Below are positions 4,910-59,663 of a DNA stretch of 64,000 nucleotides, one piece after another (the stretch's first letter is position 1; every line of letters starts with the position of its first letter). The stretch lies in contig MU005990.1 of NCBI GenBank assembly GCA_010093745.1, positions 1 to 64,000 on the forward strand. The letters are read 5' to 3'. This stretch comes from Piedraia hortae CBS 480.64. Its lineage: Eukaryota. The notes beneath the pieces are model-generated. The model was given only the letters and a program-made list of their open reading frames with translations, was not told where the DNA came from and made no database searches. Made by a program: the position numbers and the translations under genes.

Positions 4910-5709
4910 ATGGCACTCACCGAAACCAACGGCGACATGCTCGCTCCCTTAGACCGCAACATGATGATTACGCACGTCCAAAAGCAGAGGCTTATTGACG
5001 ACATGCAGCTCGAAAGTTAGTGACCTCCTTACAACAGCGTCCATCCCACTAACACCAAGAAGTCACCAGACGCGCACGCGATCTGCGCGCCCACTACGGG
5101 CAGATGGCCATGAGCCTTCGCGGACGGCTTGAATCCCGCGCTAACCGCATCCCGCGTCCTCTCCGCAAGCGCGTGCTTCAGGACTTGCTGGACGAGCACG
5201 CCGAGCAGGCCAGCCGCCCGCCCGCACCTTCCGTCGCCGTCATAGAAACTACCAAACCAGCCGCCCCACCAAGATCCACCATCAGTCGGAAACGAACGAG
5301 CGATGAAATCTCCGAAGACGACGACGACGAAGCAGAAGATAAGGAAAACAATCAAAAGGCAGTATTAGAGCTACCTAAGAAGCGCACCAAGATGGTTCCG
5401 AAGGTAGAGCTGCAACCCCATCTTGCGTCAACAATCTTGTCCCCAAAATCAAACAACTCCCGCACATTTTCACGACAAGCGGGTGCTCAGAAGCGTGCTC
5501 CCGCGAAGAACAAAATCAATGTAATCGCGGATAGCAGCGATGCAGTCAGCGCGTCGGACGTATCCCTCAAGAAACCCGTCGCGAAACGCCCTACAACTGC
5601 TACAAAGAGAACAACGGCGAGTAAAACGACGGCGAAAAAGCAGCCTGCTGCCACGAAAAAGGAAAACCTCCCGCCTGCGGGACGCGCGCTCAGGAAGAGG
5701 GCCAACTAA
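4910..5709 (+). CDS. Borealin/Nbl1-like chromosomal passenger complex protein
   Basis: Exon 1 4910-5015, intron 5016-5062 (GTTAGT...ACTAAC...AAG), exon 2 5063-5709. Spliced protein reads ITHVQKQRLIDDMQLEITRRARDLRAHY...LRGRLESRANRIPRPLRK, a borealin N-terminal pattern, followed by a basic low-complexity tail. Confidence 0.78.
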
Positions 5710-5960
5710 CTGAAATCCCTACATTGGTTGTGAGTTTGAGCACTGGTTCTCACGCTTTTTCATTAGCATAAGTATTGTAAACGTGCTTTGGTATTCACAT
5801 CTATGATACATTCAAAATGTGATTGTCTTCTTGGCAGTGCCCCACCATCCCCACCATGCTTCAAAACATGCATAATGACGCCATCTACCTATCTACTGCC
5901 CAAGTGAACCACCCATCCAGCCAGCCAACCCAAACCCCATCGCAAAGCCTCCCTTCCACC

Positions 5961-6668
5961 ATGCCCCAAAATGAACTCTACCAATTCTCCCTCCTCAACG
6001 CACTAATGGACGGTGTAGCCTCACACGGCCTCCCCTGCCGCACCCTCTCGCACCACGGCACCATCGGGCTGGGCACATTCCACAAAATGGACGGCGAAAT
6101 GATCATGCTTAATTCAAAAACCTACCAGCTGAAATCCGGGGGGGATGTGCGCTTAGCGGATCCAGATACACCAATCCCCTTCGCCGTGGTCACAAACTTT
6201 TCACCTGAGAAGAAGGTTGATGATTTGAGTTTGAAGGTTAAGGGCGATCTGGAAAAAGTTCTGGGCGATCTCTGTCCCGGGACGAAGAATTTGTATCTGG
6301 CTTTTACAGTGAGGGGTGTTTTTGGGAGGGTCAAAGCTCGTACTGTTAAAGGACAGGAGTACCCCGGGGAGAGGTTGAGTGAGTTGGGGAAGAAGCAGAG
6401 TGTGGAGGTTTATGAGGATGTTAAGGGGACGGTTGTGGGTTTTAGGACCCCGGAAAATTGGCAGGGTTTTGGCGTTGCGGGGTTGCATTTGCACTTTGTG
6501 GATGATGAGAGGGCAAAAGGGGGGCATGTGCTTGAGTTGGAGGGGAAATATTTGGGGCTGGAGGTTGCGGTTATTAGTAGGGTTGTAATGGATTTGCCTA
6601 GGACGGAGGAGTTTAATGCGGCGAGTTTGGTGACGGATCGTGAGGGTGTTAAGGGCGTTGAGGGATAG
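5961..6668 (+). CDS. alsD: Alpha-acetolactate decarboxylase (AlsD/BudA)
   Basis: LYQFSLLNALMDG, HGTIGLGTFHKMDGEMIML, GTVVGFRTP, and Zn-binding GLHLHFVDDERAKGGHVL. Intronless. Confidence 0.93.
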   Translation: MPQNELYQFSLLNALMDGVASHGLPCRTLSHHGTIGLGTFHKMDGEMIMLNSKTYQLKSGGDVRLADPDTPIPFAVVTNFSPEKKVDDLSLKVKGDLEKVLGDLCPGTKNLYLAFTVRGVFGRVKARTVKGQEYPGERLSELGKKQSVEVYEDVKGTVVGFRTPENWQGFGVAGLHLHFVDDERAKGGHVLELEGKYLGLEVAVISRVVMDLPRTEEFNAASLVTDREGVKGVEG

Positions 6669-6743
6669 AAGAGGGAATTTTTCTTTTGACCTTTGTTACT
6701 GTGTACAATGTGTATGCTACACTGTTGTGCTTTTGGGGGAGGG

Positions 6744-6769
6744 TTTTTTTTTTTTTTTTTTTTTTTTTT
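6744..6769. repeat. T26 homopolymer (A-tract on the minus strand overlapping the TAF1 stop codon)
   Basis: Directly visible run of T between the convergent ALDC and TAF1 genes. Confidence 0.95.
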
Positions 6770-9700
6770 ACAGGGTTAGTGGAGCGGCGACGGAGCCAAG
6801 CGCGTTATCGCCGTTTGCTTGTGCGGTTCCGTTTAATAAGGGACATAGCCTGCAGTTTTCGTTAGTTGATGGTTTCGAGGTATGATTTTCATGAACTCAC
6901 TTTCGGTTGGTTTTGATATGACCGACTTGTCCGCACATTGCGCACTTGCGGGCGGTGCCCTCTTTGTTGCGTGTGCGTTTGGGGGGTGGCTTGGCACCCA
7001 TCGGATCAGTGCCCAACGGCGCTTCCGCGTCTGTCCCTGCCGCCGCCTGACTTGCCTTATTTTGCTTCGTTTTCTCACGGCCTACACGCCTTTCCTTGTT
7101 GCGCTGCACACGAGCAAGCTCCTCCTTGATCTTTTCCTGAACCAAATTATTGAGTTCAGAGTCTTCTCCCACCTCATAAGAACTAATGTCAACACCCTTA
7201 AGCCGCCTTTCGTTCCTGCGTTTGCGGTATTCGCGCATTACACGCGGGTTTGTAATCTTGTCGTGCATCACGACCGTCTTGCCGGATGCATCAACGGCAC
7301 TCCGAGTGATGGCCAGAACCTTCTCAGGCTCCCGATGGGTAGCACTCCCACGGCTGAACTGGGTAGCTGTCTCATCACCACCGGGCGCCATTGAGGTGCG
7401 TGGAGTGGCGCCGCGACCCACCATAGAACGCTCGACATCGGGATCAAACTCGGTTTCTGGATCCGGAACTTCCTCTGCGCTGCCAAGACTCGCTTTTTGA
7501 CGATCCCAGATCTGCCGGATCAGTTCAGAGTAAGCCTTGTGTTGTTTGGCAACATTATACGAGTGCCCGCCATTGTCCTTGCGCGTCTTGGCATCAATCT
7601 TATCCTCTGCACTCTCTCCCTGCATCTGGAAGCCACCCTTCATCGATGTCTTGACAAAACTGAAACCCTCGCCACGCCCGGTCGGATCACCCTCGCCGTG
7701 TAGCGTCAGCATCGCCTTACCCTGTGTGGCAGCAATGAAGTTTTTGGTAGCCTGCCACGGGGCTAGCTGCTTCTCAATGTGATCATTCTCGTCCACGTCC
7801 TTGTCATCTTCTTCCCGGCCTGTACTAAGACCGAGATCACGAAGGTGCTGGACGCCCATTTGCATTGAATCCAGCAGACACACCTCCTCGGGCTTGATAT
7901 ACGTCTTGAGTTCCTCCGGCTCCGGCAGCGGGTCTTTGCTAGTCGGTTCCCACACGCCGACTTCGTGATTGCTAGACTTCACGTAATGCATAAAGTCGCG
8001 CATCTTGCTGCGTGTCTGCGGCATGTCGAGTCCTCGCAGATGCTTCATGATGGTCTTGTTATCCAAATGCTTGTCCTTGCGCGTGGGATCGAGGCTTTTG
8101 CGGTAGATTCGATAGGCAATGCTGCGTAGACGCCTCTTGGCAACGTCGGTAACGCGGCGGCTGTTGCGTCCCGGCACTTCGGTTAACGGGAACTGCTGGC
8201 CCACAGTGTGCAGGTTCTCCACATTACGCAGCGTAAAGGTGCTGCCTAAGCCGTAGGTTGTGCTGATGCCCACCACAAAATCTGTATGCCGACCCTCGTG
8301 GCGGAATACAGGGGCACGGTACAGTCCATTCTGCAGTGTTGGCACCACCTCACCGTTGTCTACAAAGCCAAAATTGGCAAACGGGCTCTTGTCCTGCATC
8401 AGCAACACCTGCGTCTCGCCAATGTCCCGTTTGGGACGCTCAGCATCGTCGCTGCTGCGCTTGCGGTAGTAGTTTATGAGGCGACTGCCCATGCCAAAGT
8501 TGGACAGAGCCATGGGCGCTTCCTCAGAGTACTCCAGCAGCAGCATGCTGGAATTGTCACACAGGGACAGGCTCTCAGACGTGGCAAAGAGCTCACCAAT
8601 GTCCTTGCCGCGACGATCTTTACGCTTGATCGTCTTGTGTTTCATCATGCTGAACTCGTACCCGTCGACTCTCGCCTTTATATCTAGCGCGGGGCGGTGG
8701 AAGGCCCGCTTCGAGTTGGCATCGAGAGTGACGCGGTAGAACGGATATTGTAAATGACGCGCCGGAAGACTGTGTTCAATCGTCGACACGCCGAGTGTGC
8801 TGCGGACCTTATGCTGATGGTTTTCCTTGAGCAAGTCGTAGGCATGGTCATTGCTAATGTTGTAGCGGTTTGTTACGTCCCTGACAGCTGCTAGGGGACG
8901 CTTCGCCGGTCGCGCCACCGATTCCCGTTCGTCTACCATCAGTCTGGAGTCGTTGAGGTTCAACGTTACCGCCTGCGAAAGCTGGCCTGCCACGCGCTCT
9001 GGCTCCGCAAAAATTATCTGGTCAAACCGAGGCGGCTCCTGCAGAATTGTAGCAAAGTCCAGCCGCCTTTTCTTAGCGGGACGGCTCTGCTCGGCCTCCT
9101 CGTAATCTGAATCGCTGGGTACTGCCCAGCTTTCGCAGATGAGCGAAAAGTCTTCCATCGTAAGTCCTGCCAACGGTTTTCCTTCGTCTACGTTCTCCAT
9201 TTCGATGTCAGAGCCTTGCTCTTCCACGGCATCGGTGGTATCACTGAATATAACAATGTCCTGAATGCGTCCGATTTCCAATGCATGTTTCGATCCTGGA
9301 TAGCTGTTAAAGCTGCGTTCCTGGTCCGCCTGCACGTCCAGCGACGGCTTAATCACCTGCAACGGGCGCGGCGGCCTCAGAGGGGCCTTGCCGCGATATG
9401 GGACACGGCGTGGCGGGAATATCTCTGTAAAGCGCGGATTGTGGTCTTCATCGTATCGCGGAAACAGCGGACGGAGCATCTCAAGGGCTTTTGCTTGTTC
9501 TTCATCTTCCATGTCCTGAGCCTCGTGACGATTGTCCCTCCTCCTCCTGGCAGCTTCCATGAGCTTTAGCTGCATAACATGCATACGAATATCCTTTTCA
9601 GATACTCCCTCTTCCCTTAACGCCTTTTCGAGATCACCGACTGAACGATGTCTATTGGCCGGCACAGCTTCAGGCCTCGTCTGTAATGGCGGTGGCCGGG

Positions 9701-10187
9701 GCGGGCGCGACGCTGGCGCTGATTTATCCGGCAAGATCAGTCCCGTGCGTTTCGGAGCCGGCTGCGGCGATAGGCGAGGCAGCGACAGCGTTGGCACTGC
9801 GACTGGGGCTAGGGTCTGTTCGGGCTCCGGTCCCTCGCCGAAGAGATCGTTCAAGTCGTCTGCAGCTTCGCCTTCTCCAAACAGCGCGTCAAATGCGTGG
9901 TCGTCATCCACATTCTCCGCGGTGTCTGGCAGAGCCTCCTCCGATTGCTGGGTCGCGCCATTAACCGCCGGGTGCGCCTCTTCCAGCGGCTGGGTTGCGA
10001 CTTGTTCTTCGGGAAGGTCGTCATCGCTAAAGTCTTCATAGTCCACGGCATTCTCTGCCTTTTCCGTTTGGTCAATCGGTCCATAGTTCTCAAACCCCGC
10101 GACTCCTTGGTCGTCGTGGCTGCGCAGGAACGATTGAATCATTTGCTGCTCGTCCATGTCGCTTCCATCGCCGGTAGAGTGCGGCAT
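6768..10187 (-). CDS. TAF1: TFIID subunit TAF1
   Basis: AENAVDYEDFSDDDLPEE, RYNISNDHAYDLLKENH, LLEYSEEAPMALSNFGMG, LAPWQATKNF...GEGDPTGRGEGFSF. The C-terminal zinc knuckle CAMCGQVGHIKTNRK|LCPLLN is completed by intron 6900-6850 (GTGAGT...CAG); last exon 6849-6768. Likely start MPHSTGD at 10187. Confidence 0.96.
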
Positions 10188-10299
10188 GGCCGGTTGTATA
10201 ATCCGATCCCAGTCAGTGTTGCTGCGGTCGGTGACGTGCTGTGCGATGTGTGGCAAAGGCCGCCGGCACAACTCCACTCCGCCAGCAAGTGAAGTCTTG

Positions 10300-11100
10300 T
10301 CGCCCAAAATGGAAAGTCGGGCAAGCGTTGGATTGCCCGACTCGGCCCGTCCCGGACAATCCATTCTTCCTCTGACCCTAAAACGTACTACAACGGGCAT
10401 GTGTAATGCTGCAAGATCAAATGTCATCTGGCTATGATACCTACTGGTTACAGTGTCCCAACACTGACTCAGTTCTGACTGTGTCCGCCCTTCAGCCCCA
10501 TTCCTGCAGTGTTCGCTTTTCAAGGCATCCCGCGGCATTGTGCGGGGCAAGTATGCTGCCTTTAAGGGTGCAACCTATCCACTATGGTTACTGATAGCAG
10601 CCATGTGTGGTACCAGATTTCAGAGCAGCACTGAAACGGGATTATTGCTCACAATCTTTGGAATGAATCCAATGCAAGGGCTATGAGCGATAACATCGCA
10701 ACCTTGACCTCTTGATGAGGTATAATTCTCATCAGAATCGAGGCAGGAGCTTGCCTGCCTCTGACTCGTGAACACAGCTTAATGCGCAGCACTAACCACG
10801 TTGTATGTTCTCACAGTCTTTCCCTCAACACGTGCTGGCTCTATCAAAGGCCCCGAAGCAGAAAGTGCCATCGCACAACACACATCCCAGGTCCAGGAGC
10901 TCTGGCGACATGTAAATTGATGCATTCGTGATTGGCTGAAAAGCGCATCGATTGGCTGCAGAGGATTTAGCGTTAGGCCTCTAATCAGGGTTAGGGACTG
11001 TATTAAGAGAGATAATAATAACGACAACTACGATCCTTCTACCACTCAAACGAAAGAAGGGCCGGCAGTCGGCCAATAGCCATGGCAAACGCTATCACCT
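10300..11100 (-). ncRNA. Candidate telomerase RNA / structured lncRNA (boundaries approximate)
   Basis: Minus-strand template-like AGUCCCUAACCCUGA (10999-10985), an upstream hairpin (11060-11035), a long-range helix (10945-10936 with 10523-10514), many local hairpins and an Sm-like AUUUUGG (10310-10304). No credible ORF. Confidence 0.45.
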
Positions 11101-11830
11101 TGCATTATCCGTGCGGTCCTGCAGTGTACTCATCCAGGCAAGTATGATTGTCGTACATCTTGATCCAATCCTCAACCGCGGCTGGGCGATGATTACTCTG
11201 ATACACCCCGGGATGCTTCCTTGCACTTAATCTACAAGACCGCAACGGCCGTTTCAACATCTTTTGCGCCATCTTCCATCGCGTTTAGGATCATAGGCCC
11301 GTGCCCTGCCATTTCGCTAGTTGCATGTGGACGTAACTCGCATCCACAGCTTATCCCTTACCGCTGCGGGCTGTCATGCCGTGCTACCGTCGATACTTGA
11401 CATAATTTGGCCCTGGCAGACGCCAAGGGAAAAAAAGTCACAGATTGGCGGAGGCCGCTAAGAGTTCTCAAGCGATATTAATTGTGGTTTTCTGGCAAAC
11501 CATCCGCAAATGGCGCTGCAAACTCTGACCCCAGCGACCAATGAAACAAGTTCTCACCCCTGATCCGCTCGTGGTATACGTATTGACTCCATTAGCGGGG
11601 AATAGATCCCCACCCTCCCCTTCCCTGGGGCTTTTATATTAAAAATGCGCTTCACGTGCAGCTGCCGATTTCCAATTCTTACTGCTCGCATTGCTGGCTT
11701 TGGCCGTCCGTTCCCTATTTCATGTCCTGACCCGTTGCTAGCTCTGTTGTCTTTCCCAGCTTCACTCTCACTAAAAAGGTGTTTTGCCAGCTCTGTCTCG
11801 TGATTGACCCGTTCAGCTCCCAGCTGAGCC

Positions 11831-13363
11831 ATGGGAGTCTCGAATGACGCCGTTAGCACTAGTCGACCCTCGCACCCGCCGTCGGCAGAAAACGCAGCTC
11901 CCCAGGCCTCATTTCGCGTATACAATGCCCCACGGCCCTTATCAGCAACGCCGACTGATGGCGACATGGCTCAGCACCATCCACCGTCTGGAGATGGCTT
12001 GGCCGCTGCCATAACCCGCCTGCAATCCCAGGTGTCTTACAACACCAACATCATCGACTCCCAGCGCTCCCAGATTGCAGAAATCGAGCAGACGATGCAC
12101 AGTTTGCATGCTCACGTGGAACGCCTTGGTCGAGCCATAAATGATATCAGGGCAGGAATGAGATCTGGCGTTGATCATAATGTTCCCCCGCCTGAGGATC
12201 TGGAAGTTTTGGCCAGTCAGATCACGCAAGCCACCAACAAGGCCAATGAGGTCGACAGCTTGAAGATGCAAGTGAAGCTGCTGACCAATCGTCTCAGGCG
12301 ATTCGAAGATGGCGCAGCCGTTTCAACTGCTTCTCCTCCTACTTTTGCCCCACGGGCCCAGACGCCCTTGAACACCCACGATGTAGCCCAATCTGCCGCG
12401 CCTGCACAGCATCCGTCGCTGCCGCCCATGCGCATGCCAGTAATGTCCCCAGCCCAAGAACGAGGCCCTATAAATGCTGTTCATTCCCACATGCCACATG
12501 TTCCTCTTCCCCAAGGCGAGCAGCCGCATGCCGGTTCACGTTACCGGCCTGTTGAGCCATTGACACATCCTCCTGCTGTTACTCTTTGGCGGTCGCACGA
12601 GCACTCGCAACCTGCTATCCACCCGGGTCCGTCAACTTCTGCTCAGCTTCCGCGCAGTACAGCAGTTAATGCTAGCGGCTGGCGTCCTGTGAATGTCAGA
12701 GCCACCAGCAAGCGGCCGTCGGAAGATACACCAAACGATCAACCTTCGTCCGCCCCAGGTTCTCCCAAACGAACCAAATTAACAGCCATATTACCACGGA
12801 GCAGCCATGGCACTGACTCGGGAGCGTCCGTAACATCTGATAGTCCCAGAATGGCTACCGAGGAAATTGTTAAGCCAGCGTCGATCGCGCCGAGGCCAGG
12901 TGCTGCACCGCCATCGGCATACCGCTTCATGCCGCCAACAGCACCTGCTGACGCTGGAGAGTGGAAACAAGAAGGCGCCTTGGCAAACAACGGCCGAACG
13001 GGCGGTAGACCAGAAGAGGAACCCCACAACGGCAGCGGATTATCCCGAGGGCGCGGTCAGCAGAATTCTGGCAGTGGCAAGAAAACGAGGACCAAACCAA
13101 CACGTAATGCAGACGGTATCCTAATCCGCAAGGACGGCAATCCAGACATGCGCTCCATCAGCTCCGTCAACAACTTGCGCAAAGTTTCTGCGAAAAAAGA
13201 AGCCGAGCGCGCAGAATTGGCGAAGCGTAATGCGCAACAGCAACAACAGCAGCAACAGCTACAGGAACAGAGCATTGAAGAAAACGGAGAAGAGGAAGGC
13301 CCAAACACAAGACAATCGACACCAAAAGATGGTGCCAGTGAGGCTTCTGATGCCGAGCCTTAA
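11831..13363 (+). CDS. Uncharacterised fungal protein with N-terminal coiled coil, Pro-rich middle, basic motif and polyQ
   Basis: 510-aa intact ORF with heptad-like AAAITRLQSQVSYN...EVDSLKMQVKLLTNRLRRFE and motif KPTRNADGILIRKDGNPDMRSISSVNNLRKV. Confidence 0.82.
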   Translation: MGVSNDAVSTSRPSHPPSAENAAPQASFRVYNAPRPLSATPTDGDMAQHHPPSGDGLAAAITRLQSQVSYNTNIIDSQRSQIAEIEQTMHSLHAHVERLGRAINDIRAGMRSGVDHNVPPPEDLEVLASQITQATNKANEVDSLKMQVKLLTNRLRRFEDGAAVSTASPPTFAPRAQTPLNTHDVAQSAAPAQHPSLPPMRMPVMSPAQERGPINAVHSHMPHVPLPQGEQPHAGSRYRPVEPLTHPPAVTLWRSHEHSQPAIHPGPSTSAQLPRSTAVNASGWRPVNVRATSKRPSEDTPNDQPSSAPGSPKRTKLTAILPRSSHGTDSGASVTSDSPRMATEEIVKPASIAPRPGAAPPSAYRFMPPTAPADAGEWKQEGALANNGRTGGRPEEEPHNGSGLSRGRGQQNSGSGKKTRTKPTRNADGILIRKDGNPDMRSISSVNNLRKVSAKKEAERAELAKRNAQQQQQQQQLQEQSIEENGEEEGPNTRQSTPKDGASEASDAEP

Positions 13364-15524
13364 GTTGTAATACTACTTGGAAAATGACAACACTGCGAAA
13401 TAAGGCGAACAGCTTGGCTACGAAATCCTTGCAGTATCAACCGATATCAGGAGGCTGCGAGCACGGTAGCAATACGCTGAATATGACAGAACGCGAGTTA
13501 TCTCAGTGCAGGCAGCTTGAGAGAAGCTCCCCTTTTGCCAATGGGCCGAGGTGATGCTGAGGGGATGGATCTAGTAGAATCGGATGTAGTCGGAACTGAG
13601 ATCAAGATCCTGCATGCGCGGAGGATGTGTTGTATGGCGATGAGGGCGAAGATCATTTAGTTTGTTGGTGGCCACAGATACGTAACAAATAGTTGAACAG
13701 GCTCGTTGTATATTATGCATCCACCCTGTGACAGTGCACCTTGAATTCCGTGGGTGTTGACTTCATATATTTTTGCGAGATGATACATAAGTTGCCTAAT
13801 TGTGTCTAGACGTATCTATACCTTGTATAAAACTCGTCTAGTCAGTCATCTTTGACCCATCTCAATGCGGTATTCCTATTCCGTCTACCGATCGCCCTGG
13901 TAGTTCGAGTGAAGATATGGGCTTTGACAATGTTTTGTGCGGTCGAATGATAGTAGCGGATCAATCAAAGTGCCATCCAGCTCCCGTAAGGGTTTACACC
14001 CATCGGATCTGAAGCAAGTAAGGATTCATATCTGGCCGAAAACAGGGGGTCTGTCTTGTTTCCGTACCACGCTCCTCTCTAACCGCTACGGCCACGCCGC
14101 CTCCAACAGTATCCCCGCAGTGTACGGTGGCTGAAATGTGCGTCGAACGCTTGCCACTCCCCCACTTGGATACAGGACATGTTTGGATAATGACAGGTCG
14201 ATTTAACATGCCATCTGATTTCTGCGGGTCTATGAGCTTCGTATGCGCAAAATGTGCCACGAGTATTATTCCACCTCCAGCTACCGCCGGAGCCATGTAA
14301 GATATCGCCTCCTCTGCCTCGTTATTCGCTTTTAACGATATGTACCCATCATTTTAGAGTGCTATGTGGTTCCCTTGTAGATCTATAGCATCACGTCCAT
14401 AGAAAATGTCACGAGCAAAATTTCGCCATGGCTCTTGTCAAGAGTATATAAAACTTCGCCTCCTCGGCGATCGTCATTTATCTGCCCGCTCTTTCCAACG
14501 CTGTTCAATCTTAGAGAGGGTCTGCAGCGAGTTTTCATTTTAGTTTCCACTTTAATCTCAGATCCATTTTTAGTTACCACTTCAAAAATCCATGGCCTGC
14601 TAAACGGAGCTGCATTTCCACAAAGAGATATCGCGGCTCCCTTTCAAATCTCCGGTCCTCAAAACAGTGACCGGCTGCAATCTCTATATATTTCCTACGG
14701 CTTGTTCCCAAATCGTGTAACTTTGGGATACCCCGCAATGTAGTAGGTGTGTCTTGGCATTCTTCCGAACCCCTACACACCCGACAGGTAGAACAGACGT
14801 AAACCCTTGTCCTTGTACCAAACAATTGCTAGCCAGCGTACGCCAATAACTGCGGTGAAGCTGTATTGCTTCGGAATTTTACTGAAGTTGGAAATTTTGA
14901 TGCAGGCGAGTGTACCTCCAAACTGCATGCCAGGACTGATCTCCCTGCTGCTCCATAACCGTCAATGCAAGGACAGACCTTTCTGCTCCGGTGACGCCCC
15001 AACCAACGCCCCTACTACCTCAACCCGCGAACGTAGACTGGCAGTACGAGTACTCTGTGCCCAACAACGCCTTCTCTGGCTGAATACCAATAGCTCACGT
15101 ACGGCCGTACACTTCCATGCCGTAGCAATGGACCTGTACCCACCCTTTCCTTTGTGCACAATGAGCTTGTTCCTCACCACAAAGGCCCTCACTGCTGCTT
15201 GTGCATAATGTCCATGTTTCCTCCGCAAATATCCCCACCGCCGCCTGTGCGCAATGAGCTCGTTCCCTACCACAAAACCCTTATTACCTTCACAAAGCTC
15301 TGTACCACCGCTCGTAGCACCCAAACAATGCCCTTTAGCCCCATGCACGATCGCCTTGTCCACCATTCAACTCTCGCACTGACTATCCAACCCGACATGC
15401 ACTGTCCTCCCCCAGAACTACGTAAAAACTAGGCTCCAGGACCTACTCCAAAAACCGAAAACCTCATACCAATCAGAAAAAAAAATACAATAACTTCCTA
15501 TCCAAAATCAAAAAATTCTACAAA

Positions 15525-16799
15525 ATGTCAACCGTAACCAACCCCACAACGCACCAAATCGCAACAACCCTCTTCACCCTCCTCTTCACCTTCAGGTATC
15601 TCCGCCTCCTCATCTCAATATACGCTTACCTAACCACCCATCCCAAAGCCATCTCCCCAAACCCAAAGTTCGCCCCGGGGGACGTAACAGTCCTCATCCC
15701 CACTACCTTCAAATCGCCCCCGGAACTCCTCTCCTGCCTCCGCCGGATCACATCCAACCGTCCCTCCAAAATCGTGGTGATAACCTCACACACCCACGTG
15801 CAAAGCATCCGTACTCTCTGCACCGAAAACATACTAAAAGCAACCGTCCTCGGCGTAGCCATCCTGAACAAACGCACGCAACTCCTCCGCGGTCTGGAGT
15901 TCGTCCAGACCCCCATCGTCGTCCTCGCGGACGACGACGTGCTCTGGCCCTCGCAAAACTACCTTTCCATCCTCTTGACCATATTCGAGAACGAAGAGGT
16001 CGGCGCAGGCGGAGGAAGGCAGCGCCTGAAGCGCAAGGCGAGGCCAAGTTTCTGGGACTTTTTAGGAACATCCTACCTGGAACGGAGGGTGTGGAATAAT
16101 ATTTCGACGAATAGGATCGATGGGTCGATTTCAACCCTCTCGGGCCGGACGGCGGCGTATCGGAGCTGTATTCTAAAAAACCCGTGGTTTTATAATTATT
16201 TTGCGAATGATTTTTGGAAGGGGAGGTTACTTAATTCGGATGATGATAAGTGTCTTACGAGGTGGGTGTTTAGGAATGGATGGGATATTGCGATTCAGAC
16301 GCACGAAGATGCGGTTCTGGAGACGACGTTGGAGACGGGGTGGGGGTTCATACAGCAGTGTCTGCGCTGGGCGAGGGCGCATTGGAGGGGGAATCTTATT
16401 GTTATGGAGGGGGAGAAGTATTGGTGCGAGAGGAAGTACTGGTTTGGGTTGTATGCGATTTATATTGCGCAGTGGACGCAATTTGCGGTCGTGTATGATG
16501 GGGTAATGCTCGCGTTGGTGAGGGTGCTGTGGCCTGAGATGACGTGGGGCTTCGTGGGATGGGTTTTGGGAACGAAGTTGGTTAAGTTGGTGCCGCATTT
16601 TTGGAGGTATCCGAAGGATTTGGTGCTCGTGCCGGTTTCGGTGGCGTTTAGTTACCTCCATGGGGTGATTAATTTGTATGCGCTGCTGACGTTGAGGACG
16701 ATGAATTGGAGTGGGAAGGATCTTGAGGCGTTGCAGGTTGAGAGGAAGATAGAGGTGCTGCAGGCTGAGAGAAAGACGCAGAATGAGAAAGAGGTATGA
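15525..16799 (+). CDS. Glycosyltransferase family 2 membrane polysaccharide synthase (Cps1-like)
   Basis: VTVLIPT, LADDDVLW, LSGRTAAYR, DDDKCLTRW and processive QxxRW motif (QCLRWAR), with N- and C-terminal TM segments. Intronless. Confidence 0.9.
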   Translation: MSTVTNPTTHQIATTLFTLLFTFRYLRLLISIYAYLTTHPKAISPNPKFAPGDVTVLIPTTFKSPPELLSCLRRITSNRPSKIVVITSHTHVQSIRTLCTENILKATVLGVAILNKRTQLLRGLEFVQTPIVVLADDDVLWPSQNYLSILLTIFENEEVGAGGGRQRLKRKARPSFWDFLGTSYLERRVWNNISTNRIDGSISTLSGRTAAYRSCILKNPWFYNYFANDFWKGRLLNSDDDKCLTRWVFRNGWDIAIQTHEDAVLETTLETGWGFIQQCLRWARAHWRGNLIVMEGEKYWCERKYWFGLYAIYIAQWTQFAVVYDGVMLALVRVLWPEMTWGFVGWVLGTKLVKLVPHFWRYPKDLVLVPVSVAFSYLHGVINLYALLTLRTMNWSGKDLEALQVERKIEVLQAERKTQNEKEV

Positions 16800-17454
16800 A
16801 GGTATGTGAATACAGGGGGAAAAAAAGTAAGTGGGTCTGAGGTAAGTGCGAGGTAGGTGGTTTTACTTTTAAGTTTTTGCCATGGCTTTTGTTTTCTTGG
16901 TTTCTTCAATCGTCGCAACGTCATGATTCTGCCCGATATATAGAGTCTGAAGTGCCGCGTCAAAATTTATATTACCCTACGTCTCGTCGCAAAAAGTCAA
17001 GTCAATCCAGATTGATGGATGAGGTGCACAGTAGATTGCTCAATCTAGTTGCCTTGCCAGTTGATGAAGGCGCCCCGCTCAGTGAAAAAAAGGTCCGTGC
17101 GCCTCTTTTGGGCGGCACAGAATTTCCCCAAAATAGACATTCACGCACGCTGATGGAAGATTAGCCGGATGTTTCTGGTGAACTAGTGGCCTTAGGAATG
17201 AGCCAAGGCGCACGAGATTCGAAAATTTCACATGTAAACATGTCGACGCAGCGGCAAAGGTTTGATTCATAGATGAGATTAAAAGACCATATTGAACATA
17301 GGATACACCTGAGCAACGGGGCGAAGACAGTTCAACGACTGCACACACTCCCTCATGCAGCTGTTCAGTATCCATATACAAATCCTCATATATCCCCTCC
17401 ATCAGCGATAACTTGGTATGTAAAGCTGTCCGCCGCACATAAAACTCCATTTTA

Positions 17455-19566
17455 CTACCTAACAGTCATCAACGCGAGTCCATCCCGCGCCGTTTCATTC
17501 GCGCGACGAAGTTTCTGGTCCTCCACATCCGTCCACTGAACCGACAACTGGTCCCACTTCTTAATCCTGTATTCACTCCTAAACGTCTGTCGAAGCTCAA
17601 GCATCTCAGCCAAGGGACGCGGGTCTCCACAGCCAGTGTACACCATAAGCGCCGTGCAGGCCGGCAGTGAATTCGCAATTTCACTAATACAACCGACAGT
17701 GCGAGCAACGACATCGGCTAGAGAAGTATTCGCATTCTCATCAGTAGTTTTGTTGCGAGCGGCTTCGTTGTCTTCCGTTTTGGATTTGTTCCACCATCCC
17801 CGATACGCTTCTAGCTCGCGTAGACGCGCCCAGACGAAGTCGCAGCCGCCTCGGGGGACTTCATCTGTATCATTGCCATGCACGGCGAGTTGGACGCCTT
17901 TAACGACTTCTGCGTCGGTTTGACAGCCGATAGCGAAACGTGCCTGGCTGCCGTAGCCGCGGGTTGGGTCGCCCCAGTCTACTACGGCTCCGACGCGCGG
18001 TTCGGTATCCCCGCTTGGGTCGTTCATGTCGCGTTTGGGCCTATGGCTGCGTGCTAGGCGCTGGAATATGGGCTCATTGTTCGCGTCAGGCATGCCCCAT
18101 TCTTTGCCTTTTTCGCATTTCTGCTTGACGAGATCGAGGACGGCTTTTGCGTCTTCGACACTGTCGTGGCCTGTCGAGCCGTGGCCTTGTTGGATTTGTC
18201 GGGAGAGGTACTTTTTGGCAAGGAACTTTAGCTTGGACTTGAGTGGTGGGCCCATTGGGTGTGGGTACAGCATGGCTGTATCTACAATGAACGGGTGAGT
18301 AATTCGCAGAGCTTCCAGGTCAGAATTGAGGCTATGGCCGAGCAAGATGGTTTGGGGCGTGAGCAGGGAAAGGAGCTTTGCTTGCGCATCTGCGAGTGTT
18401 GTGGTAACATTGCGGAGCGTCTGCTCTGTTATGCCAGAGTAGCCCGTCAAGTAATCGGTGATGGGCTCCGCTGGCTTTACAAGCTCGTCCAAGACTACTT
18501 TGCCGTTCCAATCAACCACCGATAATCTTGTAAGGCTCAAGATTCTATCGGCTTTGTCTGCATCGGCTGGTGATACTACACACATTTCGCAGTCTATGGA
18601 TAGAACATGACGACCGGCAGTGATGCTGCCACTCTGAATCTTCTCCTCAGGCACATTACCGGCTTCGAGATTGGGGATGTTGGGGGTATCGATCCAGCCT
18701 TGCTCGGCATTTGCTCCAAGCGTTTCTCGAAGAGTAGCATCTCTGGCAGCACACACCGAATTGATATAGTGAGCCGGATGCAGAATGTAGCCATCTTGTA
18801 TGAGTTCATCGGTAGTAGCTATGAACTCCGTGATGGGGGTGCGTACGGACTTTTTATCCGGCAAAGACGGCGCTTTTGAGCCTCGCTTTTTGTCTTTTGG
18901 ATTAAACCGTAAAGTCGTCAACATCGACGCGAGAGGCGAGTGGATTCGCCCGTGGTTACTGTCACCAGCAGCACGAACTGGCCAGACATGTTCGAACAAG
19001 TCTGCAAGAGGTTTGAGGGGTTTCGACAAGGCCAACCCATTTAGCTTCTTGGGATAGTAATCGTCGGGCGAAGCTGAGCCCTTTTTACGTTTAACGGTAA
19101 TAAACCCGTCCGCATCGGCAGCTGGATTAGCAGGGTCCGAGCCCGGTTGCGCAATTGCTTCATTTTCATTCTGCAGCGATACCTGGCCGCTGAACATGCC
19201 GGGCTCAAGCCCGGGTACCATCAAAACCACCACTTTCCGAATTGCTTGATGATTTTTCACAGCTATCCACTGCGGTGCAACTCCATCAGCCAGCAAGTAC
19301 AGCACCACATTCTGCAAATCGCTAAGTTTCACATAAGTTTTGAGACGCGCATTAGGTGAGTGTATAAATGCAGGATAGTTGTCATGTTTCGCAGCAGTAG
19401 AGGACTTCTTTCGGCGCCTTTTACGGTTAGGACCGGCTTCATGGCCGTCTTCTGGCGACGTACCCGCCATGTTGTTAGCAACTTGATTGGGAACGTAGCC
19501 GTGGGGTTGAGAAGTGCTCTGTCCTATGCTGTCTTCTAGCTCGTCGCGTGCGTGCTTTCCAGCCAT
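17455..19566 (-). CDS. DEDDh RNA exonuclease (Rex1/Rnh70-like)
   Basis: SIDCEMC, ITDYLTGYSGIT, LLGHSLNSDLEAL, GHDSVEDAKA. Confidence 0.93.
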   Translation of the reverse strand: MAGKHARDELEDSIGQSTSQPHGYVPNQVANNMAGTSPEDGHEAGPNRKRRRKKSSTAAKHDNYPAFIHSPNARLKTYVKLSDLQNVVLYLLADGVAPQWIAVKNHQAIRKVVVLMVPGLEPGMFSGQVSLQNENEAIAQPGSDPANPAADADGFITVKRKKGSASPDDYYPKKLNGLALSKPLKPLADLFEHVWPVRAAGDSNHGRIHSPLASMLTTLRFNPKDKKRGSKAPSLPDKKSVRTPITEFIATTDELIQDGYILHPAHYINSVCAARDATLRETLGANAEQGWIDTPNIPNLEAGNVPEEKIQSGSITAGRHVLSIDCEMCVVSPADADKADRILSLTRLSVVDWNGKVVLDELVKPAEPITDYLTGYSGITEQTLRNVTTTLADAQAKLLSLLTPQTILLGHSLNSDLEALRITHPFIVDTAMLYPHPMGPPLKSKLKFLAKKYLSRQIQQGHGSTGHDSVEDAKAVLDLVKQKCEKGKEWGMPDANNEPIFQRLARSHRPKRDMNDPSGDTEPRVGAVVDWGDPTRGYGSQARFAIGCQTDAEVVKGVQLAVHGNDTDEVPRGGCDFVWARLRELEAYRGWWNKSKTEDNEAARNKTTDENANTSLADVVARTVGCISEIANSLPACTALMVYTGCGDPRPLAEMLELRQTFRSEYRIKKWDQLSVQWTDVEDQKLRRANETARDGLALMTVR

Positions 19567-20224
19567 GGTCGGCTGACTACGAGATATAGTTGCTGAAATA
19601 ATGAGTTCCGTGACGTGGTCGTGCCAAGACAGATGTGGCTAGCGCAACGGCTGTCAACACAGCTGACGCTAACCTTTACCAGGACTCTACATGATCGTGT
19701 TCACACAACCGGAGCACGATTTCATTCTGGGTTGGAATTCTGCGGGAATGCTTACCAGGGCTAACAATTGCGACGAACTGACGGAGTATGAAGAAATGAT
19801 GCAGTGTACCGGATTGATGCAAGGGCAATAACTATTTGCGTACGATATCTTCTCAGCCAGTGAGAGGAAACAACACAAACACCCAATTATTGAAATTGAC
19901 CGCGACAGAGATGGTAGAATGCTGCCAATCTCTGCTCAGATGCAAATGCTTCAAAACATGTAGTTATTACCTTTTATCTGCGTAAAGTCCCTCGCCATCC
20001 AGCATACTTCATACTTATCAATACTTCCAATAGAATAGCTTAGTGTTTGACCTTGGAAACCCATGTATGTTTGCTTGGCTAGATTGACCAAAACCAGATA
20101 CTTTTCCGGTCTTGCTTTCCAGTGCATCGACCGCATGATCAGGTATACTCACTGAACACCGAAAACGACACAGGACCATGGCATCTTTCTGCTTATAGGT
20201 CCCGCTAGCACAGCTGGAGGGCCT

Positions 20225-26806: not shown

Positions 26807-29623
26807 ATGGATGAGGATCCGACCCAGCCGAGCACGCAAATTCAAGTCCATCGCGACCATTCAGACCTCAGCAATGCCGACGTTGCTGATGTAATGTGTA
26901 TACTGCATCCATGCACTCCAGCTTCTTTCAAAGTGGTTGCCCACACGGCCGTGAACAATCCCCAGCTCGTTCTCCGGAAAGACAAGTACAGAGACATGGA
27001 CGATGGCCTGACTCAGAGCAAGCTGGAAGAACAAGAGACGTTCATCCTCAACAGTGGTGGACCAGGCCATATCTTAGACTTGGTGTTGCGATTCTCAGCC
27101 AAGGCCATGAATCCCTCCCTTGGCTTCATGTTCGGCCGGAGCCCAAGACACTGTGACGTTGTACTGTCAACCGACAGCAACAAACGTGTCAGCAATCTGC
27201 ACTTTGCCATCTACAGCAACGATGCTGGCGTTCTGCTGTTGCAGGATCATTCCACAAATGGCACCATGGTTGACGATGTCTTACTCAAAGGCAAATTCAA
27301 GACAGCCGTGGGTCCCCAAACGAGAATGCTGAACACGGGATCGATCATTCAGATCTTGTCTCCCCAGGCTGATGAAATTCTCAAATTCGTTGTACGCATC
27401 CCATCCCGAGAAGGTCACCTTGCGGAATACACCAAGCGGATACAAGAATACCTAAAGCAAAGGGAAATCGCAATGGAGGGACCGGATGGACAGAACAGCG
27501 ACCTCACGCGTTTGATTGCTGCACGGCCAAGGGCTGGTCCCTGCAAAGCCCCTTATGCGCGGCAAAGACAAGGCATGTCCTGGAGCGGCGGCGACAAGTA
27601 TAACGTGCTTGGACATATCGGTAGTGGAGCGTTTGCCAACGTCTGGCAACTGGCGACCAAGAGCGAGGGCAAGTTGTTTGCAGCAAAGGAGCTAGAAAAG
27701 CGTCGATTTATGAAGAACGGGGTGCTGGATCGGAAGCTCAGCAACGAGATGAAGATTATGCAATCAATCAGCCATCCTCATATCGTACAGTTCATCGATT
27801 ACGTGGACCATATCGATCACATGTACATCATCATGGAGTTTGTTCCTGGGGGAGACTTGCAGAAATATCTCCAAGTTTTTGGTATGTTGGCGGAAAATGT
27901 TGGGAAGACGATGGCTGCACAGGTTCTGGATGCACTGGGCTACCTGCACTCCAAAAAGGTCACGCACCGCGACATCAAGCCCGACAATATCCTCATTTTC
28001 AATCTCGATGCTGAGAATTTCAACGTCAAACTCTCGGATTTTGGGCTGTCCAAGGTGGTCAGAGACGAAGACGCGACCTTTCTCAAGACATTTTGCGGCA
28101 CTTTGCTTTACTGTGCTCCAGAAGTCTTTCCTCAGTATGACGCTCATGCAAACGTGCGAGGTCAGAAGCGGCAACGCAAGTCCAGCTTACAGACGACCAA
28201 GTTCCACAGCTACAGCCAATCTGTAGACATTTGGTCCTTTGGTGCTGTGCTGTGGTATTCGCTTTGTCTTGAGCCTCCGTTTGAGGGAATTGCCGATCCT
28301 CATGGGAATCGCATGTTCGCTCGAATCATGAATACGCCATTGGATACTACACAACTGACCAAGAAAGGCATCTCGGACGACGGCATTGCGCTTCTGACCT
28401 CGATGCTGAACACCGATCCTGCATCGAGGCCACTTCCACATGATTGTTTACAGCATAGTTGGTTCGGCAATCAACAGGCAAAGGCAGGTGCCCTCCCTCT
28501 TCTCCCCGGCTTACGCGCAATCGTCGAAGAAGAGGAAGAAAACGCTGCTCCAGAAGCACAGGGCCTCGCGGGCCTGAGTCTATACGACTATCAAGGAGAG
28601 AGAAGCCAAGAAGACAGTTTCGACGAAGTGAGCATCCACGCTGGTTCGCTGAGATTCTTCGATCCAAGACAATCCAAACGGTTCAAATCAGAGGCATTTG
28701 CCTATCGTGAACAACCAGACCGTTCCAGCGCCGAGTGGCTGCCTGCCATATCCGAGAACGGCCTCCGAGAAGAAAGCCCACTACTCCCTGACCTACCCGG
28801 GAAAGACTTCAATCCGACAGCCAGCACGGGGAAAGACACCAAAACCCGCCCCCCCTCAACACCAAAGGACGGCCCGTCCTCATCCCCCAAAGGCCCCAAC
28901 CTTTCCACCACTTCCCAACCAAATCTCATCCACTCCCCCAGCCTCGAAGGCGCAGCCTCTCTCATGCGCGAAATCCACATGAAATCACGCACAACCTCTC
29001 CGGCTGTGGAACTCCACACCCCACCCAACAACGAAAGCCTCACCTCATCACAAACCACACCCAAACCCGCGCCCTTTAACCGACGCATCGCCCTCCCCCC
29101 ACCAACTACACCTTCCGTTCCCCAACCCCCCCGCGTCCTAGGAACACTAACCTCGACCCCCGATTCCTTCACCCCCCTAACCCTCGCCCTAACCACCCGC
29201 ACCACAACCTGGGGCCGCGCACCGAACAACACACACGTGTACCCCGACCGTCTGGACACGCGGATCCCCAAGCGGGGAATCATGATCTGGTTCCACGCCG
29301 TGGGGATCGAAGACGTCCCCGAATCCAGCCCCTGGACGGAGATGCCAGACCTCCACTGTGTAGTCTCAACGGAAAGTCATCGTGGGATCTGGATCAATGG
29401 GGTTCATTTGGTTAACGACGAGCCGGGGAAGTGGAAGTTTGGGAGGGTGTTTTCGGGGGATGAGATAACCGTGTATAGGGCCGTGCAGGGGGAGAGGGGG
29501 TTGAGGTTTCGGTGTGAGTTTAAGTTTGGGGAGGGGAGGGACAGGAGGGACCCCCGAGGGGGGAGGTTTGAGGTTTTGAGGGGGTATGCCGATAGACAGA
29601 GGAAGGGGGATGGGGGGGTTTAA
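26807..29623 (+). CDS. RAD53: Checkpoint kinase Rad53/Cds1 (FHA-kinase-FHA)
   Basis: N-terminal TQ sites (DPTQPSTQ), FHA1 (FGRSP...SNLHF...DHSTNGT), kinase motifs GSGAFA/AAKE/HRDIKPDN/DFG/CGTLLYCAPE, and a C-terminal FHA-like region (TTWGRAP...GIWING). Confidence 0.9.
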   Translation: MDEDPTQPSTQIQVHRDHSDLSNADVADVMCILHPCTPASFKVVAHTAVNNPQLVLRKDKYRDMDDGLTQSKLEEQETFILNSGGPGHILDLVLRFSAKAMNPSLGFMFGRSPRHCDVVLSTDSNKRVSNLHFAIYSNDAGVLLLQDHSTNGTMVDDVLLKGKFKTAVGPQTRMLNTGSIIQILSPQADEILKFVVRIPSREGHLAEYTKRIQEYLKQREIAMEGPDGQNSDLTRLIAARPRAGPCKAPYARQRQGMSWSGGDKYNVLGHIGSGAFANVWQLATKSEGKLFAAKELEKRRFMKNGVLDRKLSNEMKIMQSISHPHIVQFIDYVDHIDHMYIIMEFVPGGDLQKYLQVFGMLAENVGKTMAAQVLDALGYLHSKKVTHRDIKPDNILIFNLDAENFNVKLSDFGLSKVVRDEDATFLKTFCGTLLYCAPEVFPQYDAHANVRGQKRQRKSSLQTTKFHSYSQSVDIWSFGAVLWYSLCLEPPFEGIADPHGNRMFARIMNTPLDTTQLTKKGISDDGIALLTSMLNTDPASRPLPHDCLQHSWFGNQQAKAGALPLLPGLRAIVEEEEENAAPEAQGLAGLSLYDYQGERSQEDSFDEVSIHAGSLRFFDPRQSKRFKSEAFAYREQPDRSSAEWLPAISENGLREESPLLPDLPGKDFNPTASTGKDTKTRPPSTPKDGPSSSPKGPNLSTTSQPNLIHSPSLEGAASLMREIHMKSRTTSPAVELHTPPNNESLTSSQTTPKPAPFNRRIALPPPTTPSVPQPPRVLGTLTSTPDSFTPLTLALTTRTTTWGRAPNNTHVYPDRLDTRIPKRGIMIWFHAVGIEDVPESSPWTEMPDLHCVVSTESHRGIWINGVHLVNDEPGKWKFGRVFSGDEITVYRAVQGERGLRFRCEFKFGEGRDRRDPRGGRFEVLRGYADRQRKGDGGV

Positions 29624-59116: not shown

Positions 59117-59663
59117 GCGCAAACACTGTACAGAAAGAACAACCTGACGTTGATGCGGCAACCCTCTGGAATGCGTCTGTGCAGTGCGGGGCATTCCCCA
59201 CTACGCCACTGACGCATCCTGCACCTGTCATTGTACTTCTGACATATCTTCTAGAACCACTGTTCCTGTCTTCCTGAGCTGTCAACTAGATGATACCCGC
59301 CTGCTTTGTAACTTTGAGCACAGCCATCCATCGTCCTCTACCTATCCCTCACACTGGTTTCCGTAAACCATGGCTCATCATGGCAAGTGACGTTAGGTAG
59401 TTAAAGAAGCCATCATTGTTCTGTTAACACAAATCTCTTGGAAGATGGATTCGCAGCAAATCCGCCTCAACGTGGAACCAAAGAGGGCGCTATCAGATAG
59501 TATGGATCGACTAACTACTACAGCTTACTCAGCTTACTTTCCCATTATCGTCGCTTAACGACTGTAACTTAGCCCATATTGTCAATACGAGACCTAATCT
59601 CCGTCTTGAGCTACACAAATGAAGGGTTAGGTATCCTGTTGAGGAAGAAGTCTACTGTCGATC

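Follow-up and report, generated by a model that had tools for sequence, protein, structure and literature searches.

Upstream non-coding transcripts are common in fungi, and yeast SRG1, which lies upstream of SER3, is reportedly a promoter-upstream or divergent non-coding RNA polymerase II (Pol II) transcript. Ascomycete telomerase RNAs (TERs) are also Pol II transcripts, according to the part of the account cited here (PMC9564094), and the TERs of filamentous fungi are described, in the cited sections of two further papers, as longer than 1 kb and usually intergenic (PMC3603654, PMC3592445). Here we analyze a 1.6-kb intergenic space in Piedraia hortae CBS 480.64, located between the TAF1 gene on the minus strand and a divergent coiled-coil gene on the plus strand. 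It lies in a 64,000-nucleotide stretch (contig MU005990.1, positions 1 to 64,000, assembly GCA_010093745.1), to which we refer as the window. An original prediction, made from the sequence, had placed a TER gene in this space on the minus strand, with another structured long non-coding RNA (lncRNA) as its fallback. We find that the space is transcribed into a separate polyadenylated RNA, which is probably an upstream or divergent promoter-associated transcript and very unlikely to be a TER.

Several features by which a filamentous-fungal TER might be recognized are given in the cited portions of the literature. The template is expected to be single-stranded and between one and two telomere repeats long, and the RNA to be a transcript of its own, 1.3-2.4 kb in size and with no apparent open reading frame. 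In Aspergilli the boundary helix is about 8 bp long and mostly 2 nt from the template (PMC3603654), and in Pezizomycotina a pseudoknot with U-A.U base triples follows 3′ of the template (PMC3592445, PMC3603654). P6.1 takes the form of a 4-bp stem with a 5-nt NUNGN loop, placed in a three-way junction with P6 and with an A between the two (PMC3592445, PMC4993307). The 3′ end is made by spliceosomal cleavage, with a 5′ splice site AUA(A/C)GU and a branch point GCU(A/G)ACU close to that end (PMC3603654, PMC4299874, PMC4993307), and this cleavage is said to process all known filamentous-fungal TERs (PMC4993307). Known Pezizomycotina TERs were found by BLAST via similarity in the core region; the N. 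crassa TER measures 2,049 nt and that of M. graminicola, the sole Dothideomycete measured, 2,425 nt, and N. crassa-type TERs are described as having no canonical Sm site (PMC3592445). The TER of Ustilago maydis arises through processing of the 3′ untranslated region (UTR) of the emi1 mRNA, in what is described as a basidiomycete pathway (PMC9564094).

Evidence for RNA came from one public run, which contains 96% of the sampled words of positions 9000-13000 and was aligned to 5000-20000. Its label, ‘RNA?’, is a guess, and the RNA nature of the run was judged from a spliced joint, a poly(A) tail and uncovered bins. The run behaves as a transcriptome, with a joint between 6848 and 6900 (CT..AC ends), two bins of zero depth and contig depths that range from 4.6 to 2193. 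A single contig of 1,464 nt, 1,450 nt of which lie on the window, covers the intergenic stretch 10386-11835 continuously. It opens, ahead of 10386, with 14 T not encoded in the genome, whose minus strand at this point reads ...GUAGUA and then CGUUUUAGG. These untemplated T are a poly(A) tail, and they place the 3′ end of a minus-strand RNA at 10386. The contig is distinct from that of the TAF1 mRNA (6900-10253). A separate, unannotated, polyadenylated minus-strand RNA, hereafter the upstream RNA, exists upstream of TAF1; its absence would have refuted the original prediction by that prediction's own account, and the fallback of another minus-strand lncRNA is supported by this poly(A)-tailed contig. 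The 5′ end of the upstream RNA lies at or before 11835, the contig limit, and the outermost bases near 11835 may be part of the plus-strand gene's 5′ UTR.

An RNA-free gap (10254-10385) separates the poly(A) site from where the TAF1 contig starts. As the depth of the bin 10010-10510 (317.4) is, by arithmetic, exactly the sum contributed by the TAF1 contig and the upstream contig alone, these two fully explain it and the gap is uncovered. The gap is likely the TAF1 core promoter. Two elements that the original prediction had assigned to the 3′ part of the TER fall within it: the 10-bp stem at 10342-10315 and the Sm-like ATTTTGG at 10310-10304 (AUUUUGG as RNA) are present on the minus strand, but beyond the RNA 3′ end at 10386. 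A stem of this length occurred in 0.8% of shuffles (P = 0.008). As DNA it is a perfect 10-bp inverted repeat, AGTCGGGCAA N8 TTGCCCGACT, which is overlapped by a second, imperfect one of 11 nt at 10329-10363, and it may act in the TAF1 promoter as a palindrome bound by a factor or as a termination element.

The upstream RNA is probably a non-coding Pol II transcript associated with a promoter, of the upstream or divergent kind, and arises in promoter-rich intergenic DNA. Two CCAAT boxes, CAGCCAATC, lie at 10929-10963 on the minus strand, 20 bp apart and inside a 14-nt direct repeat whose plus-strand copies are GATTGGCTGAAAAG (10930-10943) and GATTGGCTGCAGAG (10950-10963). The boxes, which we take to be CCAAT-complex sites, are some 700 bp upstream of the TAF1 mRNA start, and a TATA-like TATAAAAG is found at about 11640 on the minus strand. 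In the model that we propose, Pol II would transcribe the intergenic DNA between TAF1 and the coiled-coil gene into a polyadenylated minus-strand RNA, starting between about 11835 and the CCAAT and TATA-like elements. Transcription would head toward TAF1, with cleavage and polyadenylation at 10386, leaving some 130 nt to the TAF1 mRNA. Any effect in cis would come from transcription across the TAF1 upstream control region, stopped before the core promoter. On this reading the helices named in the original prediction and its telomere-like 10-mer, all taken up below, would be chance matches or DNA-level elements, such as the CCAAT-box repeat and short palindromes, and not a template core.

The upstream RNA is apparently non-coding. 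Its longest minus-strand ATG open reading frames (ORFs) are of 137, 55, 48 and 34 amino acids (aa), the 137-aa frame giving 92 aa from the ATG that lies inside the contig. These ORFs had codon scores of about 0 or less, whereas the two neighbors, themselves included in the training set, scored 0.31 (TAF1) and 0.13 (plus-strand gene). We nevertheless weighed the possibility that the RNA is an mRNA for a small lineage-specific protein, encoded by the 92-aa frame from ATG 11832 or by the 55-aa frame at 11272-11105 and followed by a long 3′ UTR. Polyadenylation would be in keeping with this, as would the start of the 92-aa ATG frame 4 nt inside the upstream end of the contig and a codon score that is about 0 in frame versus -0.35 to -0.55 out of frame. 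However, the enclosing 137-aa frame had no relative among proteins of 75-240 aa (12 word-sharing candidates, none with E<=0.01), its codon score was under those of both real neighbor genes, and the remaining frames are of 55 aa or fewer. The implied 3′ UTR of about 1.2 kb would be unusual, and the TATA-like element near 11640 would place the transcript start downstream of ATG 11832. We regard a small-protein mRNA as unlikely.

The original prediction also described the RNA as structured, and all ten sequence elements that it listed were found in their places when the minus strand of 9800-11900 was examined for them. Few of these exceed chance, with a mild enrichment of short local hairpins. 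Local hairpins of at least 6 Watson-Crick pairs numbered 6, compared with 2.8 in shuffled sequence (P = 0.07), and those of at least 7 pairs numbered 3, compared with 0.74 (P = 0.038). Folding of the 801-nt region gave z-scores of -3.2 for the minus strand and -2.1 for the plus strand (20 shuffles per strand). In 200-nt sliding windows excess structure appeared only at 10500-10899, where z ranged from -1.1 to -4.0 and was similar on both strands. Two adjacent perfect hairpins lie in this part, GAGGCAGG/CCTGCCTC at 10761-10740 (pairing probability ~1.0) and TGATGAG/CTCATCA at 10734-10713 (pairing probability 0.85), and the windows of 10600-10899 that hold them gave z of -2.3 to -4.0 on both strands. 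They were the only structures robustly predicted in an ensemble fold of the transcript. The description as structured was borne out for 10500-10899, but only there and equally on both strands. A further listed hairpin, UUUCAG/CUGAAA, is at 10636-10618.

A search for motif arrangements returned a feature in this same part of the RNA that is reminiscent of a C/D-box small nucleolar RNA (snoRNA). This unconfirmed candidate, GAUU-CUGAUGA ... CUGA-AAUC at 10615-10739 on the minus strand, has a C box (CUGAUGA, 10735-10729) and a D box (CUGA, 10623-10620) that are 111 nt apart, and a terminal stem GAUU/AAUC of four Watson-Crick pairs that abuts both boxes, at about 125 nt end to end. The upstream RNA could on this basis be the host or precursor of a snoRNA at about 10739-10615 that guides rRNA 2′-O-methylation. 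In favor of such a role, the two strands of the window together have 58 UGAUGA sites, of which only this one combined zero offset with four Watson-Crick pairs, and the part of the region that contains it is the only one where predicted structure is in excess. Against it, two further sites also passed the relaxed arrangement test (3 in all), which amounts to about one false positive per 64 kb of strand, and the C box has a first letter C where the consensus RUGAUGA has a purine. The fold also predicts that a 7-bp hairpin locks up the C box (P = 0.85). D′ or C′ boxes were not seen by eye, and a scan of 241 bases with Rfam at E values up to 10 gave no snoRNA match on the minus strand. A guide of this class comprises 10 nt or more upstream of the D box that are complementary to rRNA or snRNA. 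Among the metagenome matches listed there was no sign of a conserved rRNA target of at least 14 nt, and a shorter duplex would escape this search; the exact 14-nt complement of the bases before the D box was found in at least 118 metagenome stretches, and the 116 usable flanks were unrelated (<=0.07 bit per column). A snoRNA host or precursor is, on balance, very improbable.

As the template of a TER, the original prediction had named the telomere-repeat-like 10-mer CCCUAACCCU, read from the minus strand at 10987-10996. The sequence, CCCTAACCCT at 10996-10987, comprises 1.67 repeats of CCCUAA type and is on the sense strand of the upstream RNA. Chance was assessed with 200 dinucleotide shuffles of the window, in which all six registers and both strands were counted. 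At least one telomere-like 10-mer was present in 23.5% of the shuffled windows, and at least one 9-mer in 71%, in line with the caution in the original prediction that the match alone is not significant in 64 kb. In the window itself there are three telomere-like 9-mer loci, and the exact 10-mer occurs twice. Within the folded 1,450-nt transcript 8 of the 10 bases of the motif were paired at a probability of at least 0.7.

The other exact copy of the 10-mer is at 29175-29184 on the plus strand. In its surroundings (29160-29200, plus strand), CCCTAACCCT is followed by CGCCCTAACC, within a long coding stretch that is C-rich and apparently rich in proline. This second copy shows that such motifs arise from composition. 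As a better TER candidate it was rejected, being coding sequence, and the 9-mer at 59623, in an intergenic space of about 650 nt, was rejected as well.

The structural features of a TER were then sought around the 10-mer in the upstream RNA. No boundary helix beyond chance was found: among helices whose end falls in the 8 nt 5′ of the template, the best had 7 bp including G-U pairs, compared with a shuffle mean of 7.8 (P = 0.83). The hairpin CCTTCT/AGAAGG (11060-11035, minus strand, 6 bp), which had been put forward as the template-boundary element, ends 38 nt from the template and had a pairing probability of 0. No 4-bp/5-nt NUNGN P6.1 hairpin with a P6 stem was found 3′ of the template on the intergenic minus strand. 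The sole match to the P6.1 descriptor on this strand, where 1.46 were expected, is at 11250, 5′ of the template and with no P6 stem. The hairpin CAGUGU-UGGG-ACACUG (10451-10466), likened to P6.1 in the original prediction, has a 6-bp stem, a 4-nt loop and a pairing probability of 0.0. From the motif to the poly(A) site, a crude test of tract content found triple-helix material limited to one U4 (10942) and one A4 (10520), with no second U tract; the helix possible between these two tracts had a probability of about 0.01.

The long-range arm fared no better as a structural core. Its two strands, CGCTTTTCAG and TTGAAAAGCG, are at 10945-10936 and 10523-10514 on the minus strand, and the accompanying CTGCAG copies are at 10961-10956 and 10509-10504. 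CTGCAG is self-complementary, such that any two copies ‘pair’, and the CCAAT-box module described above overlaps or abuts the 5′ strands of the arm. In the ensemble fold the arm had a pairing probability of about 0.01, and the count of 10-bp long-range helices with at most one G-U pair was at the level of chance (5 observed, compared with 2.35 in 40 shuffles, P = 0.225). The 200-nt windows that cover the template gave z of -0.6 (10900-11099) and +0.7 (10800-10999), and that over the P6.1-like hairpin (10400-10599) gave +0.4.

Signals for 3′-end formation were likewise sought 3′ of the template, with no AUA(A/C)GU and no GCU(A/G)AC found there; the sole AUACGU is at 11583, 5′ of the template. 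A terminal mini-intron from GUAGGU (10444) to CAG (10409) was considered and rejected, since a length of 36 nt is too short, the first base is the canonical G and no joint was observed. The window had no Rfam match at the gathering score, the presence in Rfam of a model for this clade being unconfirmed. In three narrower scans at E values up to 10 there was no telomerase family, and the weak matches returned (four, then one) were far below the gathering score.

The features of a TER that this locus presents are limited to the template-like motif and to a transcript of its own, apparently non-coding. With these, Pol II transcription and an intergenic length of over 1 kb would fit the filamentous-fungal TERs as described in the cited sections (PMC9564094, PMC3603654, PMC3592445), and a hairpin with a UUGGG-containing loop does lie 3′ of the motif. 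On the other side, at most ~1.45 kb is available to the separate RNA and only 600 nt separate the motif from the poly(A) site, against a 2,425-nt TER in M. graminicola, and the 10-bp stem and Sm-like site are outside the RNA, N. crassa-type TERs being described in the cited part as lacking a canonical Sm site anyway (PMC3592445).

The prior also bears on the question. There is one TER per genome, whereas a 10-mer of this kind turns up in a quarter of windows. A non-coding poly(A) RNA with the motif would, taken alone, leave a TER possible but doubtful, in an estimate that assumes a genome of tens of megabases with ~100 or more chance 10-mers (from the shuffles). These odds fall to very low because four structural and processing features fail, namely the boundary helix, the P6/P6.1 junction, the triple-helix material and the spliceosomal 3′ signals. 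That the upstream RNA is a TER gene with CCCUAACCCU as its template, with a divergent and unusually compact TER matured from the poly(A) form, is therefore highly improbable. It is just as improbable that such a TER has dispensed with the boundary helix, P6.1 geometry and spliceosomal signals and matures from its polyadenylated precursor by another route; if true, an essential gene would have gone unannotated, and the TER would be unusually small for its class. The telomere-like 10-mer is most likely a coincidence. A 10-nt telomere match accompanied by stems picked by eye is to be expected in about a quarter of 64-kb windows, and should not be read as a TER signature without a boundary helix, P6/P6.1 and 3′-end signals.

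Several points weigh against our reading of the upstream RNA as a promoter-associated non-coding transcript. The RNA evidence is a single contig from a single run whose label was a guess; strand can be read from the contigs only via the tail, and the 5′ end not at all. The mean depth of the upstream contig (139) may be inflated by overlap with the highly covered 5′ UTR of the plus-strand gene, and it is not divisible between the two overlapping transcripts. The better codon score in frame than out of frame would favor a small protein, a reading that keeps its low probability, though any open frame would score in this manner. The 10-mer is rare by chance when only this transcript and strand are considered, being present in 0.18% of 5,000 shuffles (a chance of 0.0018), and for a non-coding poly(A) RNA to carry a template motif on its sense strand is not a trivial coincidence. 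Finally, the descriptors used for P6.1, the boundary helix and the pseudoknot were simple and were built from the text of two papers. With these points taken into account, we continue to hold a promoter-associated non-coding transcript to be the probable explanation.

TAF1 (6897-10253, minus strand) was identified by its DUF3591 domain (PF12157, E = 3.7e-173) and by its RNA contig. Its coding sequence starts at ATG 10187, and a 51-nt intron (6849-6899) close to the gene's 3′ end corresponds to the contig joint 6848/6900, which is GT..AG on the minus strand. The TAF1 frame is open for a further 117 codons upstream of ATG 10187, back to ATG 10538 on the minus strand. A longer TAF1 N-terminus from ATG 10538 was rejected because in the RNA contigs both the uncovered gap and the poly(A) site (10386) fall inside this frame, and TAF1 translation probably does not include the open stretch 10187-10538. 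When metagenomes were scanned with the TAF1 protein, 25 pattern stretches matched, among which there were no relatives.

The divergent neighbor (11831-13728, plus strand) codes for a coiled-coil protein of low complexity, which matches SlyX weakly. Its ORF spans 11831-13363, with a second in-frame ATG at 11966, and its listed RNA contig spans 11963-13728. The first ATG (11831) precedes the start of this contig. Between 11836 and 11962 there is no listed contig, yet the bin depth of 1729 requires hidden contigs of high depth, which points to alternative forms of the plus-strand gene at its 5′ end, or to a variant bubble there. Farther along, 14018-15520 had zero or near-zero RNA cover in the run, unlike the flanking genes.

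The upstream RNA adds to the annotation of this genome an unannotated, polyadenylated and apparently non-coding RNA that ends just upstream of the TAF1 promoter. TAF1 is a core transcription-factor gene, and the RNA is a possible case of control by an upstream transcript. Transcripts of the SRG1 type are said to be polyadenylated, to lack a convincing ORF, to run in tandem toward the downstream gene from a shared intergenic region and to end just before its promoter. The upstream RNA resembles them in each of these respects, which at this locus are known from the sequence and the contig.

C/D-box snoRNAs resemble the candidate at 10739-10615 in their C box, D box, abutting 4-bp terminal stem and size of about 125 nt, and differ from it in that here no target (among the matches listed), internal boxes or Rfam family were found and the C box is in a competing hairpin. 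The layout of the U. maydis emi1 TER, as given in the cited part of its description (PMC9564094), is superficially alike, with a short 5′ ORF and a template-like motif in a long downstream part. In contrast to that system, the ORF here has no homologue and the TER core elements are absent; the 137-aa frame cannot hold a twin Cx9C motif because it has only one cysteine. Lastly, with the Pezizomycotina TERs of N. crassa and Aspergillus, as far as the cited sections describe them (PMC3592445, PMC3603654), the upstream RNA shares Pol II-type transcription, a length of over 1 kb, an intergenic position, the lack of a convincing ORF and a sense-strand CCCUAA-type motif of more than 1.5 repeats. It differs from these TERs in having no boundary helix, P6/P6.1 junction, U/A tracts for a triple-helix pseudoknot or AUA(A/C)GU and branch-point signals, and it extends only 600 nt past the motif, with no excess structure at the motif itself.

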